From: Promethearchaeia archaeon
GTDB lineage: Archaea; Asgardarchaeota; Lokiarchaeia; Sigyniarchaeales; SOKP01
Direction: 5' to 3'
Assembly (NCBI GenBank): GCA_046483985.1
Contig: JAWOCD010000096.1
Span: 1-10,516 of the forward strand
DNA length: 10,516 nt
Within the stretch, counting starts at the first letter, position 1. Each line of letters opens with the position of its first letter. The position numbers and the translations under genes are program-made. Under the pieces are notes generated by a model that was not told where the DNA came from, searched no databases, and worked only from the letters and a program-made list of their open reading frames with translations. Shown here piece after piece: positions 3,571-10,516 of this stretch.

Positions 3571-4107
3571 ATGACCGAAGCCGATAAACAATTTGAGCAA
3601 CAACAATCAATTAAGAGAGAAGAGATCATCTTAGAACAAGCAATAACAATCTATGAAACCGCGCTTGACTCTGATGTAATTTCATTCCGCGAAGCAAAGA
3701 TTAGAAAACTACGACAAGCTTTAAACAAACTAACTGGAGATCGGTATGCGCAGTTAGATTCAAAACTCGCTACACTCGAAGCCAACACCAGAAAGATGAA
3801 GGAACTGAAAAATGCGGAACTTCGAATCAATACCGACAAGGTTAATAACACAGACACAAACAATTTCAGAAAGTTCGTGAAGCAGTTAGAAATCTCTAAG
3901 ATACAACGAGACATAATGATATTATTGAATCGAGGTCCCATGCCCAGAAGTAAAATCGTGACAAAACTTGGTAAGCCCAGGACAACGATCTATGATAATC
4001 TCCGAAAACTACAAAAGAAAAACTTAGTTGACAAGTATCCGTTCAACAACGGAGAACGGGGCCGACCGATAATAATGTGGAAACTGACAAATCAAGAGGG
4101 GGTATAA
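3571..4107 (+). CDS. Coiled-coil plus C-terminal winged-HTH regulator (TrmB-like)
   Basis: GPMPRSKIVTKLGKPRTTIYDNLRKLQKKNLV...GRP fits the TrmB/ArsR-type wHTH pattern; SD GAGGTG. Confidence 0.8.
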   Translation: MTEADKQFEQQQSIKREEIILEQAITIYETALDSDVISFREAKIRKLRQALNKLTGDRYAQLDSKLATLEANTRKMKELKNAELRINTDKVNNTDTNNFRKFVKQLEISKIQRDIMILLNRGPMPRSKIVTKLGKPRTTIYDNLRKLQKKNLVDKYPFNNGERGRPIIMWKLTNQEGV

Positions 4108-4328: not shown

Positions 4329-4330
4329 AG

Positions 4331-4592
4331 ATGTCAGAAAATTTGAATTTGAATGAAACAAAAGAAGAGGAATCATTATGTCTTTCTGAAAGCGACAAAA
4401 AGAAATTCATAGAGAAAGTCAAAGAGAGAACACCGTTACAAAACGCATTATTCTTTATCAATATAATTTGTATTATTATGGACTCTAAGGATCTCAAAAT
4501 CAGAATTAATTCGAAAGCTCTCTAAATTTTTTGTAGATCGACCTGATAAATTAAAAGATATTTTGAAGAAAATTAAAAAACAAAAAAGGTGA
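4331..4592 (+). pseudogene. Hypothetical gene, probably interrupted by a +1 frameshift (intact ORF is 4331-4525)
   Basis: A second frame is open from 4467 to 4592 (FVLLWTLRISKSELIRKLSKFFVDRPDKLKDILKKIKKQKR*), has no start codon near its beginning, and ends on the PCNA SD (AGGTGA). Confidence 0.5.
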
Positions 4593-4602
4593 ACAGATTA
4601 AA

Positions 4603-5424
4603 ATGTTTAATATCAAATTAGAAAACCCCAAAATTTTGAAGACGATTATTTCGGCAATTGAAGGACTCATCGATGAGACGGTAATTCGGATAGCACTCGA
4701 TAAAGTCGTGATTAATGCTATGGACCCCAGCAAGATCGTTCTTACAGAGATTACACTTCCAGAAGAAACTTTTGACGACTACAACGTTACAGAACCCGCA
4801 AACGTTCCACTGAATTTAGAAGATCTAAATAAAATCTTGAAACGTGTAAACAATTCGGACTTTTTGAGACTTTCAATGACCGAGAACGCGCAAAAAATAA
4901 AGATAAGCGCATTTGACCCTGAGCATCAGCGTAACCGAGAATTTCATTTGGCATTATTAGATTTAGACATTGAAAAAGCCGACATGACGACGTTATTTGA
5001 TATCCATTATCCCGCAACCGCAACACTGTCACCCGGGCTGTTTCTCGAAGCATTAAAAGACTGTGAAATCTATTCGGAAATCATAAATATCAGCGCAACC
5101 GAGGAGACACTTTATTTTAAAAGCGAAGGTCAAATCGGTGAAGCAAACTATGAGCTGTTCGGAGAGTATCTCTCTAACTTAAACGTAACATCAGACGCGA
5201 AAGGCACATACGCAATCGAACATTTAAAAAAGATTCTGAAACTTATTGCGATTACGGAGAAATTTAGCATAGACGTAAAAACGGACCACCCGATAAATCT
5301 CACGTTTGATATTAGTACCGGAGGCACGGTTCATTATTTTCAAGCGCCCCGAGTTGAGGAACCGGAGTTTGACGAAGAAGAAATCTTGGAGGATCTCGAA
5401 TTAGAAGAGGAAGAAGCAGAATAA
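4603..5424 (+). CDS. pcn: DNA polymerase sliding clamp PCNA (archaeal type)
   Basis: Hallmark motifs AMDPSKIVL, FDDY, LNLEDLNKILKR, F-SEG-G, GTYAIEHLKKILK and C-terminal YFQAPRVE; 273 aa. Confidence 0.97.
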   Translation: MFNIKLENPKILKTIISAIEGLIDETVIRIALDKVVINAMDPSKIVLTEITLPEETFDDYNVTEPANVPLNLEDLNKILKRVNNSDFLRLSMTENAQKIKISAFDPEHQRNREFHLALLDLDIEKADMTTLFDIHYPATATLSPGLFLEALKDCEIYSEIINISATEETLYFKSEGQIGEANYELFGEYLSNLNVTSDAKGTYAIEHLKKILKLIAITEKFSIDVKTDHPINLTFDISTGGTVHYFQAPRVEEPEFDEEEILEDLELEEEEAE

Positions 5425-5437
5425 CAAATCAACATCA

Positions 5438-5450
5438 TTTTTTTTATTTT
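5438..5450 (+). terminator. Putative oligo-T terminator after pcn
   Basis: T8-A-T4 run starting 13 nt after the stop codon. Confidence 0.5.
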
Positions 5451-5510
5451 ACTCTATTGTCTCGCGTCTCGCGACCAAGGAGTATTAACAATAAAAAAAG
5501 AAGTGATAAA

Positions 5511-6542
5511 ATGGTTCAAATAAAACAAAGACCAAATTTTAAACCAGCAGAATGCAATCACAACAATACGATATTTCGTAATGGGTTTAAAGTATGTACC
5601 AATTGTGGAAATATAATCGATAAACACCTTACATCTGGGCGATACCTCAGAGGCGATACACAAGATATTCAAAAATATGGAACCCCACCGAGAGCAACAG
5701 CATTAGGAGATACCCAATCATCTCTTCGAGAAGGAACAACATTCAGAAAAAAAGACATATATAAAACAAACAATTCACCCTTATTTTTCAGGCTAAAAAG
5801 GATCGATAAATATCGATATAAAGACCAGGAAACTTATTTACGTATATTTAAACGATTACACAAGGTGTGTCTCCGTTTGGGAATTCCACGACATATTACC
5901 GAGGCGGCGGCATACAGATTTCGGAAATTAAAAAACGGAGACTATAATATCATTAACAATTCAACCGCGATAGTATATTGTCTCTGGGATACTATTCGAT
6001 TTTATAAATTTAATACAAACCTAAAGAATCTTATTAACGCATTTAAAGAAGAGGGTACTCATATTCGAGGTAGACTCCTAATTCGCGATGGGGCCCTTTA
6101 TAGTAAATATCTCAAAAACGAAGGTATCGTAAAATCAAAACCTAAACATGCAAAAGATTATATTCCAACACTTATCGCAAACTTCTTAGCAAATAAAGAG
6201 AGAATCCAAGAACGTCTTACTTATAAAAGTGTACCCATCTCCCCTGAAAACTATATTTTTACATTAGAGCGTTTTGCGTTTTATATTATTGATATTATAA
6301 ATATCCCTCTCAGATATTCAAGTCTTAATCCATTTCAAACCGCAAGTACAGTATTATATGTTGCGGGAAAAATGGTCGGAAAAATAAAAGGTTATTCATC
6401 AACTGTATTAACCCAATCGCTTATTGCAGAAATTACAAACGTCGCCATACACTCTATTCGAGGGGTATATGGAAAACTACTCAAACCGATTCTTGATGTA
6501 ATCCTATTTAAATTAAAGGAAGGTAAATATGACACAGAGTAA
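5511..6542 (+). CDS. tfb: Highly diverged transcription initiation factor TFB/TFIIB homolog (copy 1)
   Basis: N-terminal Zn ribbon CNH...CTNCG; cyclin-repeat segment LHKVCLRLGIPRHITEAA; C-terminal HTH LTQSLIAEITNVAIHSIR. ATG 5511 follows GAAGTGA; the track starts at TTG 5457. Confidence 0.8.
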   Translation: MVQIKQRPNFKPAECNHNNTIFRNGFKVCTNCGNIIDKHLTSGRYLRGDTQDIQKYGTPPRATALGDTQSSLREGTTFRKKDIYKTNNSPLFFRLKRIDKYRYKDQETYLRIFKRLHKVCLRLGIPRHITEAAAYRFRKLKNGDYNIINNSTAIVYCLWDTIRFYKFNTNLKNLINAFKEEGTHIRGRLLIRDGALYSKYLKNEGIVKSKPKHAKDYIPTLIANFLANKERIQERLTYKSVPISPENYIFTLERFAFYIIDIINIPLRYSSLNPFQTASTVLYVAGKMVGKIKGYSSTVLTQSLIAEITNVAIHSIRGVYGKLLKPILDVILFKLKEGKYDTE

Positions 6543-7452
6543 AAATCCAGGGAATGTTATGCCCACTACATATTATTGTCCCGAGTGTCTGAAATATTCG
6601 GGAGTTTTAGACCCAGTCTCCAACGAAACAATCTGTGAAAAATGCGGTCTCGTGCTGGACGATACAAACATTAAAAATTGCGAGCGACCAATGTTTAACC
6701 GAAAACAAATAAAATCACGGAAGCGTACAGGACCCCCTTCATCACCGTTATACCTTAACAAGTCGACGGTGTTTAAGAAAAGAGATATCTTCAGTTTGAT
6801 AAACTCAAAGGCAAATCAACGAAAATTCTCGAGACTCTATAAAAGAAATTTGTATCTTAATTCTCAGAATCGGAGCTTAAAAAACGGGCTGGACGAATTT
6901 AAAGGGATTATGAACCACTTTCAGATCCCAAGACCAATACGCCTACGCGTCTTTACGTTAGTAAAACAAGCGCAAGCAAAGAACCTTCTCCAAGGACGAG
7001 CGTATCATACAATTATTCCGGCACTGTTATATTTAGTATGTCAAGAGCGCAATTTTCCGCTGCGACTGCGAAAAATAACATCAGAGCTAAAAATCTCAAA
7101 TCATATTTTTTTTAAATATCTTCGTGTTATGGCTGCGGAATTAAAAGTGTCACATAATAAACAAAAACAAAACATGCATGTTACGAAGACTTGCGCCGAA
7201 CTTGACATTCTATTTCTTGAACGCGAAGTAGCGTTACTACTACAGAAAATTCCGTTTTATATCAAGAACGGAAAAAAGCCAGGAGGTATATTAGGCGGAG
7301 TTATTTATTATTTTTCTCAGAAAAAGCATTTAGGAATTACATATCAACAGATCTCGGATATTGTAAAAGTTACCGAGCCGTGCATACGAGCTCGATTTCG
7401 GGAAATTAGAAAATGGATACAACAGATCAAGGAGGGAAACAATCAGAAATGA
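6529..7452 (+). CDS. tfb: Transcription initiation factor TFB/TFIIB homolog (copy 2)
   Basis: CPEC...CEKCGLVL Zn ribbon; RKRTGPP reader loop; NLLQGR and NGKKPGG repeat motifs; HTH ITYQQISDIVKVTEPCIRARFREI. Confidence 0.93.
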   Translation: MTQSKNPGNVMPTTYYCPECLKYSGVLDPVSNETICEKCGLVLDDTNIKNCERPMFNRKQIKSRKRTGPPSSPLYLNKSTVFKKRDIFSLINSKANQRKFSRLYKRNLYLNSQNRSLKNGLDEFKGIMNHFQIPRPIRLRVFTLVKQAQAKNLLQGRAYHTIIPALLYLVCQERNFPLRLRKITSELKISNHIFFKYLRVMAAELKVSHNKQKQNMHVTKTCAELDILFLEREVALLLQKIPFYIKNGKKPGGILGGVIYYFSQKKHLGITYQQISDIVKVTEPCIRARFREIRKWIQQIKEGNNQK

Positions 7453-7868
7453 CCATGTGTAGATATGCGGAGCTATGCCCACATTATAGACTAAAATCAT
7501 ATATATGTAATAAAAACCCTGGGCCATATTGCGGCCAGTATAAAAGACTTCAGAAAAAGGAAAAGAGGATTAGACAACGGAAACAAGGCAAAGGCAAAGC
7601 AACATTCTTCACCGAAGAGCTGGAAAAAATGTTTGAGAATTTAACTAAAAAAGTGGTAATAAGCAAAGGGCTGAGTAAGCAGAATCATCACACAGTTTGT
7701 AATCTTATTTTTATTGGATACAAACCTGGATGTTCAGCTCGTGAATCGCAAAACTGCGAGCATAATCGAAACGGTATATGTATGCTTCACCAAGATTTAA
7801 GCTGTGCGGCTGTTCAAACTATTAAAAAACGAGAATTACGCATGCGGGAGGAATTAATTAAAAAGTGA
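7449..7868 (+). CDS. Cys-rich hypothetical protein with two metal-binding clusters
   Basis: ATGA overlap with the tfb stop (track start 7413); C-x5-C-x9-C-x7-C at the N-terminus and a second Cys/His cluster at the C-terminus. Confidence 0.65.
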   Translation: MTMCRYAELCPHYRLKSYICNKNPGPYCGQYKRLQKKEKRIRQRKQGKGKATFFTEELEKMFENLTKKVVISKGLSKQNHHTVCNLIFIGYKPGCSARESQNCEHNRNGICMLHQDLSCAAVQTIKKRELRMREELIKK

Positions 7869-8416
7869 CGATTGAAAGCAAGGAAATTAAACATTATACA
7901 AAAGACGACATTTTAAATCAATTGGAAGTTTTTAAAGAGACGCGATGTTTTCTGTGGGGGAAAGTGACAACTCAAAAATTCTGGGATATTCGAAGCGAAG
8001 TTGGGCGTGATATATTTCGCGAAGAATTAGGCGTGCATTTGGATAAACAAGCCGGCGACTGGATTGCCAAAGTCCGCATTGCTCGACAACCGCGCCAGAA
8101 GAAGATATATATTCATAATATATCGATTGGAGATCATGTTTGGATTCAGAATGTACATCCTAATACAAATATTGGTAACGGGGGCTTTCGACGAATTGGA
8201 AAAGTAGTAGAGATTCGAAGCGATGGAAAATTAAAAGTAAGATATACTCGAAGTGACGTTGATCAAGATTTTGTCGAGCGTATAAATCTATTTGTTCCTA
8301 TTTATCTTGGTTATCAGAATCATGATAATTTAATCTCAGGTAACGTTGCGAAAAGAGAAAAGTTTTGGAAAGTAAACTATAAACTTATTAAGGAGGATAA
8401 CCTAGATGCGGTTTAA
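7865..8416 (+). CDS. Hypothetical protein with possible SH3/KOW-like beta-barrel
   Basis: ISIGDHVWI...IGKVVEIRSDGKLKVRY pattern; GTGA overlap; upstream GGAGG. Confidence 0.6.
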   Translation: MTIESKEIKHYTKDDILNQLEVFKETRCFLWGKVTTQKFWDIRSEVGRDIFREELGVHLDKQAGDWIAKVRIARQPRQKKIYIHNISIGDHVWIQNVHPNTNIGNGGFRRIGKVVEIRSDGKLKVRYTRSDVDQDFVERINLFVPIYLGYQNHDNLISGNVAKREKFWKVNYKLIKEDNLDAV

Positions 8417-8720
8417 TTTAGAATCATACAAAAAATTCTATTCTCTCCCTGAAGAGATTAATTATAAATTATATATGCAGATCGCCCAAAAACGCGATGA
8501 TCTTCTCTGGTGTTATCACGATTGTCTTAATGAGATTACCCGGTTAGCTCGAGAAGTGGTAGTGCCAGAATTCACTTCGAAGGAAGCAAAATATTATCGT
8601 AGACATTTATTTGACTTAATTGAACTTTTACAAGAGCGTCCGAAAAAGAAAACGCATCCACTCTATAAACGAATAAAACACCAGAAACGACAAAAACAAA
8701 AATTGGAGGCAACCCACTAA
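8406..8720 (+). CDS. Hypothetical protein with basic C-terminus
   Basis: SD AGGAGG, 104 aa, overlaps the upstream gene. Confidence 0.65.
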   Translation: MRFNLESYKKFYSLPEEINYKLYMQIAQKRDDLLWCYHDCLNEITRLAREVVVPEFTSKEAKYYRRHLFDLIELLQERPKKKTHPLYKRIKHQKRQKQKLEATH

Positions 8721-8721
8721 A

Positions 8722-9156
8722 ATGACTGGAAAAAAACCACTCTTTCAGAAAAAAGGCTTTTTGGCTGTGTTTAACATATTTAAAGAGGATTCATTTCACG
8801 CTACAGAAATTCTCTATAAATATTTTCTTACGCTTTTACGCGGAAGAGGGGCGGAAAGCGCATTCTATACAGTAAAAACAAAATTGGAGGAAAAGAACAT
8901 TATATCATTTTATGAATCAAACTTGGGCAAAGTAATTAAATTAACAAAAAAAGGCCAACAGATACGACAAATTATAGGGCTTTTACAGCAGCTTTTAGAT
9001 ACCGAAACCTATTTGTTACGAGCAGACCATAAGGTTCATGAGCGTAAGATTAGCCATGTGCTTACTATTTTAATGAAGCTCTTGAGAGGGAAAGACCCTT
9101 TCGATGAACTTGAACAAAAATATTCGGAGGTATTAAAACATTCAAAATGGAGATGA
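8722..9156 (+). CDS. Winged-HTH DNA-binding protein (MarR/PadR-like wing)
   Basis: ESAFYTVKTKLEEKNIISF...KVIKLTKKGQQI shows the typical recognition helix, wing and LT-KG motif. Confidence 0.7.
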   Translation: MTGKKPLFQKKGFLAVFNIFKEDSFHATEILYKYFLTLLRGRGAESAFYTVKTKLEEKNIISFYESNLGKVIKLTKKGQQIRQIIGLLQQLLDTETYLLRADHKVHERKISHVLTILMKLLRGKDPFDELEQKYSEVLKHSKWR

Positions 9157-9278
9157 AGGCACATAACTTCCAATTTGGCAAAAGGGATATCGGGTTACTT
9201 CAAGATATTAAACCCTTGATTAATGAGAACCTCTTTGAAAAGCTCAAAGAACGACTTAAAAAAAAGGAGGGATTATAA
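9153..9278 (+). CDS. Small 41-aa protein not in the ORF track
   Basis: ATGA overlap with the upstream stop; MKAHNFQFGKRDIGLLQDIKPLINENLFEKLKERLKKKEGL*; fills the gap and ends 1 nt before ATG 9280. Confidence 0.55.
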   Translation: MKAHNFQFGKRDIGLLQDIKPLINENLFEKLKERLKKKEGL

Positions 9279-9279
9279 G

Positions 9280-9663
9280 ATGGAAATGGGCACAATTAGA
9301 AAAAGATTAAAAGAACGGTTCCACGGCGAGAATAAACGCCGCAAATATCGGGCCGTATTTGAGCGATTCGGCTCACGTTCGGGATACAAAGGGCCAGTCC
9401 GAACAATACTCTTAAAAAATCTTGTCGATGGAAAAACACATAAACCAATCGCCGATCATTTATGGATTGATTGCGGAAAACGGTTTGACAAGATACATTT
9501 AACTTCTGGCGATTTAGTTGAGTTTTACGCCCGTGTCGATGCCTATGAAAAAGGTTATAAATTCAAACGCATCGATTATCGGTTAGTGTATCCCAGTAAA
9601 GTAAGAAAACTAAATGTTGATTATAATCTTAAAAAATATTTTAAAAATAAGGAGGAAAAATAG
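9280..9663 (+). CDS. Hypothetical protein, possibly OB-fold-like
   Basis: F-RFG...TILLKNL...DHLW...GDLVEF-ARV--Y-KGY...DYRL-YPSKV resembles a widespread uncharacterised family as I recall it (unverified). SD AGGAGGG 9265-9271 favours ATG 9280 over the track's 9223. Confidence 0.65.
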   Translation: MEMGTIRKRLKERFHGENKRRKYRAVFERFGSRSGYKGPVRTILLKNLVDGKTHKPIADHLWIDCGKRFDKIHLTSGDLVEFYARVDAYEKGYKFKRIDYRLVYPSKVRKLNVDYNLKKYFKNKEEK

Positions 9664-9665
9664 AA

Positions 9666-9908
9666 TTGACAAAAACAATAAAAAAGCGCATTAGAAAGAT
9701 CACCTTATCATCTCGAACACTTCTGATTGACATCCGCAATCATTCGGCGATTCTTAAACCATTTGATCCGAACCTGAACGGATTTGACTGGAGCAGACCG
9801 GTTACCATTACTATAGAACAAGAAGCGATTACTCCAATATGTAAGCATTGTAAAGGTCTTGAGCATTTACGCAAACAAAAAACAAATGAGGTGAAAAAAC
9901 GTGACTGA
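9666..9908 (+). CDS. Hypothetical protein, weakly AbrB/swapped-hairpin-like, with a C-terminal CxxC
   Basis: SD AGGAGG before TTG; beta pattern IRKITLSSRTLLIDI...PVTITIE; CKHC. Confidence 0.5.
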   Translation: MTKTIKKRIRKITLSSRTLLIDIRNHSAILKPFDPNLNGFDWSRPVTITIEQEAITPICKHCKGLEHLRKQKTNEVKKRD

Positions 9909-10347
9909 AGAATTTGAAAAAATAAAAAGTGACTTCGTGGACCTTGAAGTAAGAGAATTTCTTTCCAAGAATTTCGAAATTATGATGAATTCGGGGTTGG
10001 GTATGAAGGGATTTAAGCGACACTTTTCGGACTATATCGAGCGCATGAAGGAATCCCAAATTGGAAAATCAAAATGGTATTGTAAGCAATGCAAGGAAGA
10101 GTTTATACGTCCAGATAAAGAACATAATTGCCCGTGCTGCGGAGCTCATGCAGAGTTAATTCAGCTTGTTTGGTGCCGGTGTGCGGATTGTGAAAAATAT
10201 CTCGAAACATATCACGCGTGTGACGCATGCGGTGGGACGATGGACCGTGAAAATTCAAAAGAAGAATGGTTTTGGTGTCAATGGTTTTACCCAAAAGAGG
10301 AGCTTTATAGTCAGTATATTAAACCTAAGGAGCTGAGCGAGAAATGA
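9901..10347 (+). CDS. Multi-Zn-ribbon protein
   Basis: WYCKQC...CPCCG and CRCADC...CDACGG...C motifs; strong SD GAGGTGA before the GTG start. Confidence 0.75.
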   Translation: MTEEFEKIKSDFVDLEVREFLSKNFEIMMNSGLGMKGFKRHFSDYIERMKESQIGKSKWYCKQCKEEFIRPDKEHNCPCCGAHAELIQLVWCRCADCEKYLETYHACDACGGTMDRENSKEEWFWCQWFYPKEELYSQYIKPKELSEK

Positions 10348-10516
10348 AACATGCACGACTTTCGGAGCAGATAAGTATATGTGCTCGATGTTATAGATCC
10401 ACTAAAGGAAGATTTTTTCTCTTTCAATCTTGGGGGCGGGAATCGGTATTTTGTCCGGAATGTGTACACGATATGAAAAAAAAAAGGGAATTTAAACTTA
10501 TGAAACGAACATATAT
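10344..10516 (+). CDS. Small Zn-finger protein, 3'-truncated by the window edge (not in the track)
   Basis: ATGA overlap; MKHARLSEQISICARCYRSTKGRFFLFQSWGRESVFCPECVHDMKKKREFKLMKRTY... with CARC and CPEC. Confidence 0.65.
   Translation, partial: MKHARLSEQISICARCYRSTKGRFFLFQSWGRESVFCPECVHDMKKKREFKLMKRTY

Follow-up and report, generated by a model that had tools for sequence, protein, structure and literature searches.

The 10,516-bp stretch analysed here (the window) is the whole of contig C121 from an Asgard metagenome-assembled genome (MAG; 4.06 Mb, 128 contigs), and its centre holds a sliding-clamp gene (pcn) followed by genes for two homologs of the archaeal transcription factor TFB (TFB1 and TFB2). 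The reading favoured here, with modest confidence, is that the window is a fragment of an Asgard element resembling the circular 10H_0, in which the two TFBs would steer the host RNA polymerase and the clamp would act separately from them. The features on which this reading turns are as follows:

4603..5424, + strand: PCNA sliding clamp of 273 aa with an acidic C-terminal tail (Pfam PCNA_N 8e-19, PCNA_C 4e-11)
5425..5510, + strand: pcn-tfb1 spacer of 86 bp with a T8 run, a GTCTCGC tandem and an A/T-rich stretch (sequence reading)
5511..6542, + strand: TFB1, a divergent TFB paralog of 343 aa with a C-x-H...C-x2-C ribbon, a shortened reader/linker and two cyclin folds with an insert between them (profiles, fold, hidden Markov model (HMM))
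6529..7452, + strand: TFB2, a TFB of canonical layout, 307 aa, with a four-Cys ribbon, reader/linker motifs, two TFIIB repeats and a C-terminal helix-turn-helix (HTH) (Pfam; phrog_20431 4e-25)
6529..6542, + strand: tfb1-tfb2 overlap of 14 nt (ATG 6529; TAA 6540-6542), from which translational coupling is read

An earlier annotation of the same DNA (the sequence-only reading) had described a clamp gene followed directly by two overlapping TFB homologs among orphan genes, and that description holds. It knew of no characterised archaeal example of the pairing, which is still the case for functional characterisation; co-occurrence is already on record in LC711081.1 ('plasmid P-10H_0', circular, 84.4 kb), found by tblastn of the PCNA against plasmid records, where one PCNA and two TFIIB genes lie inside 6 kb. 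The annotated order in 10H_0 is PCNA, winged HTH (wHTH), Orc1/Cdc6, TFIIB, two hypotheticals, radical SAM, hypothetical and TFIIB, with radical-SAM and DNA-methyltransferase genes about 10 kb past the second TFIIB. Medvedeva et al. (bioRxiv 10.1101/2021.07.29.453957, section 8; later Nat Microbiol 2022) report that 10H_0 and the 7H_42-like elements 'share homologs of PCNA and TFB', and they regard both as CRISPR-targeted elements of unknown type, novel viruses or plasmids. Medvedeva et al. draw no distinction between the two TFB classes in 10H_0; with HMMs built here, the first TFIIB is canonical (305 bits) and the second is of the TFB1 type (206 bits, 1e-63). Like the window, 10H_0 thus has a co-directional cluster with PCNA, a small wHTH, a canonical-type TFB and a TFB1-type TFB, followed by radical-SAM and DNA-methyltransferase genes, which for the window would lie on another contig of the MAG, C49. 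Identities between 10H_0 and the window are 40% for PCNA, 41% for the wHTH, 27% for the TFB1-type protein and 26% for the other TFB. However, the gene order differs, the TFBs of 10H_0 are neither adjacent nor overlapping, and Orc1 is present in 10H_0 and absent from the window.

Two further contigs carry pcn and both TFB genes. The first, L012 (a JGI contig of 2.8 kb), has an unbroken pcn-tfb1-tfb2 whose nucleotide identity to the window, taken from the alignment, is about 93%, and its TFB1 is 91% identical. The second, L014 (a 17.1-kb metagenome contig), has two TrmB-like wHTH genes, a small gene, PCNA, four inserted genes, TFB1 and TFB2, with radical SAM, DUF4326, Dam and methyltransferase genes further downstream; its TFB1 is 38% and its TFB2 about 29% identical to those of the window, and its two TFB genes overlap by 4 nt. 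Synteny of pcn-tfb-tfb is therefore kept in L012, interrupted by four genes in L014 and rearranged in 10H_0. Homologs of the window's wHTH (3571-4107) also adjoin PCNA, at 58% identity over the HTH in L014 and at 41% in 10H_0. Thus, one TFB of each class, PCNA and a wHTH recur in three diverged elements (window/L012, L014 and 10H_0).

This grouping exceeds chance, because PCNA was found within the flanks (up to 10 kb each side) of none of 74 TFB-anchored metagenome loci, a background set drawn from a metagenome scan with a TFB2 alignment and made up mostly of generic TFBs, as against three divergent mobile elements with PCNA. Nor was PCNA present at about 35 chromosomal TFB1-like loci. A scan of IMG/VR with a PCNA alignment gave one 115-kb viral contig whose PCNA is 43% identical to that of the window, with no TFB anywhere on the contig. 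The grouping is specific to a small family of Asgard elements and is already in print; what is added here is that each element has one TFB per class, that TFB1 is tied to a chromosomal paralog adjacent to orc1, and that the TFB1-TFB2 overlap is kept in L014.

The contig is an accessory, mobile-element fragment and not chromosome, because the host has its own PCNA and TFBs, the DNA is absent from the other genomes of the order, and gene-swap variants occur in metagenomes. The host MAG encodes a PCNA on C115 (48% identical to that of the window), an enlarged second PCNA on C32 and ten TFB-family genes, among them a TFB1-like gene (C50:86615-87607) whose product is 30% identical to TFB1. DNA relatives of the window were not found in the 153 other species genomes of the order, and the element-type TFB1 occurs in 1 of 154 genomes, namely this MAG (685 bits, against at most 165 bits elsewhere). 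Gene swapping is seen in the slot upstream of pcn, which holds a 64-aa open reading frame (ORF) in the window and a 148-aa ORF in L012, and which is skipped altogether in a tidal-flat metagenome contig that joins 4329 to 4597; contigs of that run (X1) cover 29 of 30 window bins at roughly 90-94% identity. All 24 ORFs of the window are on the + strand, mostly stop/start-coupled with GGAGG-type ribosome sites upstream. Pfam matches were obtained for four of them (a TrmB/ArsR-type winged helix, PCNA, TFB2 and a fourth with weak matches alone); most are orphans, and the 10.5-kb contig has no core or housekeeping gene. The earlier claim that the cassette is element-encoded is accordingly upheld.

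The element may be a plasmid, or a capsid-less or unrecognised virus. The integrase, capsid and terminase genes that the sequence-only reading proposed to look for are missing from the ORFs of C121, judged by Pfam and phrog profile matches. Likewise, the CRISPR spacer hits that it had also proposed to look for did not appear: no array was recognised in the source MAG in a crude scan, and the 153 related genomes gave weak short matches alone, none convincingly spacer-like. A contig end in the same MAG (C127:15-171) carries three 61-bp tandem units without spacers and is not CRISPR-like. No terminal repeats were found on C121, nor overlaps with the ends of the other contigs of the MAG, and the window has neither Rfam family matches nor tRNA genes.

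Both TFB genes encode recognisable TFB homologs, to very different degrees. TFB2 matches Zn_Ribbon_TF at 1e-8 (9.7e-9), and the TFIIB repeat is recognised twice in it (2e-16; PF00382, 6871-7125 and 7264-7410); its 'MTQ' start is common to two relatives. The middle gene (5511-6542) is a TFB homolog that is barely detectable alone: TFB1 lacks a Pfam TFIIB match, its Zn_Ribbon_TF match is weak (0.013) and below Pfam thresholds, and it meets the viral TFB family phrog_20431 at 5.5e-5. PF00382 is carried by several of its relatives at about 30% identity, and in the TFB core of Pyrococcus woesei (1ais_B) both cyclin repeats are matched by the TFB1-family profile (3.6e-6). Furthermore, a canonical-TFB HMM built here matches the TFB1 orthologs of L012 (6e-18) and L014 (4e-24), and the AlphaFold model of TFB1 (overall pLDDT 60, core 70-85) has 1d3u_B, 1ais_B and TFIIB as its top Foldseek matches. 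Its start is placed at ATG 5511 rather than TTG 5457 because the 91%-identical ortholog P0004 begins there with MVQIK. The motifs of the two proteins compare with a host canonical TFB as follows:

Zinc ribbon: host canonical TFB CPEC...CGSC; TFB2 CPEC...CEKC; TFB1 E-C-N-H...C-T-N-C
Reader region: host canonical TFB EWRAF; TFB2 RPMF; TFB1 GRYL (roughly aligned)
Linker start: host canonical TFB RVGAP; TFB2 RTGPP; TFB1 YGTPP
Linker end: host canonical TFB GLSTMI; TFB2 KSTVF; TFB1 EGTTF
GR motif of cyclin repeat 1: host canonical TFB GRS; TFB2 GRA; TFB1 INN
C-terminal helix: host canonical TFB VTEATIRNRYKEI; TFB2 VTEPCIRARFREI, aligned with it; TFB1 VAIHSIRGVYGKL

As judged from these alignments, both proteins retain the full TFB layout: a ribbon, reader/linker-like motifs, a pair of cyclin folds and, in the C-terminal HTH, the ...T-x-x-I-R-x-x-Y/F helix. 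Between the window and L012, dN/dS is 0.024 for PCNA, 0.14 for TFB1 and 0.12 for TFB2 (the first 95 codons of TFB2 alone); by this measure all three genes are evidently functional, and the TFBs evolve faster than the clamp.

The two classes are also distinct in descent. In a quick IQ-TREE phylogeny with SH-aLRT support, which calls for caution because several branches are long, the TFB1-type clade is supported at 100% and the element TFB1s (window, L012, L014) are monophyletic at 98%, sister to the 10H_0 TFB1-type protein and the chromosomal family. The TFB2 sequences of the window, L014 and L013 form a clade at 97%, which so far holds element or short-contig sequences alone. By contrast, the other TFB of 10H_0 falls among the host canonical TFBs and not in the TFB2 clade, and the TFB1-type protein of 10H_0 clusters with the chromosomal proteins. 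A TFB1-type and an 'other' TFB are therefore kept in each of two element lineages, which argues that the classes are non-redundant. Close relatives are few. An exhaustive HMMER search with TFB2 gave two proteins clearly closer than generic TFBs, one of them on L014, and TFB2 forms an element-only clade with P0017 (L014) and P0016. A word-indexed protein search with the element-TFB1 alignment returned no further element-type TFB1, the phage collection held no TFB1 match, and IMG/VR scans with TFB1, TFB2 and the TFB2-clade alignment gave no relative.

In the scheme proposed here, the window would be the early or regulatory region of the element, coding for a regulator of the winged-helix type, the sliding clamp and two TFBs that are not redundant with each other. 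Translational coupling of their genes would let TFB1 and TFB2 be produced together; both would bind the TBP and RNA polymerase of the host and steer these to the promoter classes that the element needs, in the manner of alternative TFBs in haloarchaea and Sulfolobus. The clamp would work apart from the TFBs, as a processivity factor and tethering platform for element replication and DNA-modification enzymes. Promoter reprogramming by the two TFBs is plausible, and steering is inferred because the domains are complete, the genes are under purifying selection, one gene per class is conserved and the behaviour of TFB paralogs is known. Halobacteria have multiple TFBs with paralog-specific programmes. 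Like the ten TFB-family genes of the host, Halobacterium TFBa-g and Sulfolobus TFB1/TFB2/TFB3 are paralogs, which direct one RNA polymerase to different programmes; however, those genes are chromosomal, whereas the two paralogs of the window are on a mobile element. A precedent for a paralog-specific TFB programme is Sulfolobus TFB2, which drives a cell-cycle wave (bioRxiv 10.64898/2026.09.06.749720). The TFBs of some rudiviruses, WyrdV1, JinchiV1 and Halorubrum tailed viruses (phrog_20431) resemble those of the window in being full-length homologs and presumed recruiters of the host transcription machinery; unlike them, they are single genes in the published descriptions consulted, none reported as a two-class coupled pair or beside a clamp, and their identity to TFB2 is just about 22%.

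Several points weigh against this interpretation. The window has four spacers longer than 45 bp (436-659, 4526-4602, 5425-5510 and 9157-9222), too few to define a promoter motif. TFB1 has lost a ribbon Cys (a His possibly replacing it) and about 11 residues, and so may perhaps fail to support initiation. A TFB2-type gene on L013 has no TFB1 upstream, and the TFB1-TFB2 pair is therefore not obligatory. Lastly, the linkage of C121 to C49 is deduced from the homology that both show to 10H_0 and L014 and does not come from the assembly.

The most serious competitor, although rather unlikely, is host take-over by mimicry. Element TFB1 would copy the orc1-linked TFB1-like paralog and switch or hold on a host programme, possibly replication or the cell cycle, while TFB2 would serve element promoters; the consequence would be a cell friendly to replication of the element. 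What makes this attractive is the chromosomal family itself. TFB1-like proteins of about 340 aa are encoded in 142 of the 154 species genomes of the order and in all 39 high-quality ones, usually in one copy, within conserved synteny with Arf-type GTPases, rpS17e and orc1/cdc6, the last lying about 2-3 kb away in the host and its relatives (C50:86615-87607 and about 83300-84540; L009-L011). The elements retain a TFB1-type gene beside another TFB, the TFBs of 10H_0 are clustered with Orc1/Cdc6 and PCNA, and the Sulfolobus TFB2 wave offers a cell-cycle parallel (bioRxiv 10.64898/2026.09.06.749720). On the other hand, the link to orc1 may be mere clustering of conserved genes near the origin, and the element TFB1s branch outside the chromosomal proteins, with which they share 26-30% identity, so that shared DNA specificity is not required. 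This order-wide paralog beside orc1/cdc6 is an unstudied family, and the link is added by the present analysis.

Some genomes depart from the single-copy pattern. One contig (G052:C69; L112-L114) has three TFB1-like copies within 55 kb, and a canonical TFB stands directly beside the TFB1-like gene in tandem in G147:C7 (L119) and divergently in G077:C7 (L117). No PCNA was found in the stretches inspected around the extra copies (G052, G077, G147, G026, G005 and others).

A less probable alternative still is that TFB1, or both TFBs, act as decoys which bind TBP or RNA polymerase unproductively and shut down host transcription, like other viral inhibitors of archaeal RNA polymerase. The peculiarities of TFB1 are what suggest it. 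Its ribbon has three Cys and a His, C-x-H...C-x2-C in all element TFB1s, as against CxxC...CxxC in the chromosomal cousins; about 11 reader/linker residues present in those cousins are missing; the GR motif of cyclin repeat 1 has become NN; and the second Arg of the I-R-N-R-Y helix is lost. However, the INN signature and the altered C-terminal helix are common to TFB1 and the chromosomal TFB1-like family, and a universally conserved chromosomal family is unlikely to be an inhibitor. The CNH triplet, moreover, is invariant among element TFB1s just 38% identical to each other, which suggests a working metal site, and the dN/dS of TFB1 applies over its whole length.

It is also conceivable, though quite improbable, that in this Asgard order the TFB1-type proteins serve as basal factors linked to replication, and that elements co-opt their own copy together with PCNA (and with Orc1 in 10H_0). 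If this were true, a specialised TFB would couple transcription to origin firing or S-phase, and the element would use it either to impose that state or to detect it. Archaea would then have a counterpart of replication-coupled gene expression, for which direct clamp binding would not necessarily be needed.

The sequence-only reading went further and proposed that the TFBs might be activated by the element's own clamp, as in phage T4: the clamp, loaded on replicating DNA, would bind one or both TFBs and activate late promoters. This now appears very improbable. In its favour, pcn is immediately upstream of tfb1-tfb2 in the window and L012, the co-directional arrays of L014 and 10H_0 each contain PCNA together with two TFBs, and none of the 74 other TFB loci has PCNA nearby. 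T4 gp55 and gp33 each have a C-terminal clamp-binding tail. By contrast, neither TFB1 (...KLKEGKYDTE) nor TFB2 (...IKEGNNQK) ends in, or anywhere contains, a strict or loose PCNA-interacting protein (PIP)-like motif, and the neighbourhood is not fixed, with four genes (2.8 kb) between pcn and the TFBs in L014 and the wHTH and Orc1 genes in 10H_0. The sole feature in common with the gp45/gp55/gp33 system is a mobile genome that encodes a clamp and promoter-recognition factors. Complex prediction of PCNA with TFB1 and TFB2 (score 0.00, mark 0.32) counts neither way. Clamp-activated TFBs are currently unsupported, gene neighbourhood being all that speaks for them.

The window PCNA has both clamp domains and the conserved C-terminal ...APRVEE strand (Pfam; alignment with host PCNA), and is 48% identical to the host C115 PCNA, about 45-46% to that of L014 and 40% to that of 10H_0. 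The spacer behind it (5425-5510) is a candidate terminator or promoter; its motif TCTCGCGTCTCGCGA occurs once in the genome, and the GTCTCGC tandem is confined to one window spacer. In L014, a hairpin and a T run stand directly 3' of PCNA. Given this and the T8 run of the window, pcn may be the end of its own transcription unit, apart from tfb1-tfb2, a further point against clamp-activated TFBs.

The PCNA of L014 (L014:4116-4922) is 72% identical to that of the host (C115:15404-16207), as against just 48% for the window PCNA, which suggests that the element clamp in L014 was recently replaced by a host copy. Clamp genes appear to pass between elements and hosts, whereas the TFBs descend from old element lineages; since those of L014 stand beside a host-like clamp, the clamp would be swappable without co-evolving TFBs, again at odds with a T4-like coupling.

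PIP-like tails are found instead on DNA-modification enzymes. On C49, four consecutive proteins of DNA-modification type (5127-10387) have PIP-like C-termini: QVNLTQWG in a radical-SAM-like protein, KITLMRFI in an ASCH protein, QKNISRWI (QKNISRWIS) in a methyltransferase and TLTLDYFM in a 658-aa protein. The orthologous methyltransferase of L014 (L014:16296-17036), 40% identical, ends in QKNLRCWIK. The tail is conserved in the two methyltransferases, and the motif is therefore kept where a clamp client is expected; the PIP-tailed enzymes of C49 and L014 are likely clients of the element clamp. C49 (L128; 15 kb, with every gene on one strand) has six genes in common with the DNA-modification part of 10H_0 and four with L014, and is probably a further piece of the element itself or of a sister. 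C121 has four genes in common with 10H_0. A domain of about 160 aa without a Pfam match is found both in a 566-aa protein of L014 (L014:5397-7097) and in the 658-aa protein of C49 (8411-10387), and the host MAG has at least 12 dispersed paralogs of it (34-43% identity), 10H_0 one.

That all three genes belong to the host as paralogs, on a stretch of ordinary chromosome that was poorly assembled, which the sequence-only reading had named as its own refutation, is barely credible: the GC content of the window (35.7%) is close to that of the genome (35.2%) and C121 has no integrase, capsid or terminase gene, but it lacks core genes, its gene set and order match the circular 10H_0, it is absent from the 153 other species genomes and it has gene-swap variants in other metagenomes.

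Beyond the cassette, three other features of the window were identified:

3571..4107, + strand: winged-helix (TrmB/ArsR-like) DNA-binding protein (Pfam TrmB 5.5e-7, HTH_5 7.5e-5, residues 108-157)
4329..4602, + strand: variable slot upstream of pcn with a 64-aa ORF (4331-4525) and a 77-bp spacer (L012 and tidal-flat comparison)
8722..9156, + strand: small putative transcription regulator (phrog_11046 'transcriptional regulator' 7e-4; homolog L014:11574-11858)

The winged-helix protein has a host paralog at C50:66655-66846. A 92-bp intergenic element at 443-533 recurs at 93% identity in another contig of the MAG (C56:12920-13011), with three predicted hairpins (z = -3.5) and a position directly after a stop codon at both sites; it may be a shared small RNA, terminator or regulatory site. 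C56 is itself element-like, encoding an MCM helicase and a tyrosine integrase, and the shared 92 bp hint at a single element, or a pair of sister elements, to which C121 and C56 would belong.

Eukaryotes have no closer known relatives than the Asgard archaea, and TFIIB, Brf and Rrn7 have their ancestor-like counterpart in TFB. If the two TFBs do steer the host RNA polymerase, elements with two TFB classes would mean that genetic parasites in the Asgard lineage target the choice of promoters by alternative basal factors. The finding also draws attention to the divergent TFB paralog that stands beside orc1/cdc6 throughout the order. The TFB pair, with two small proteins and four spacers, would be a compact, testable system for how promoters are divided among TFB paralogs.

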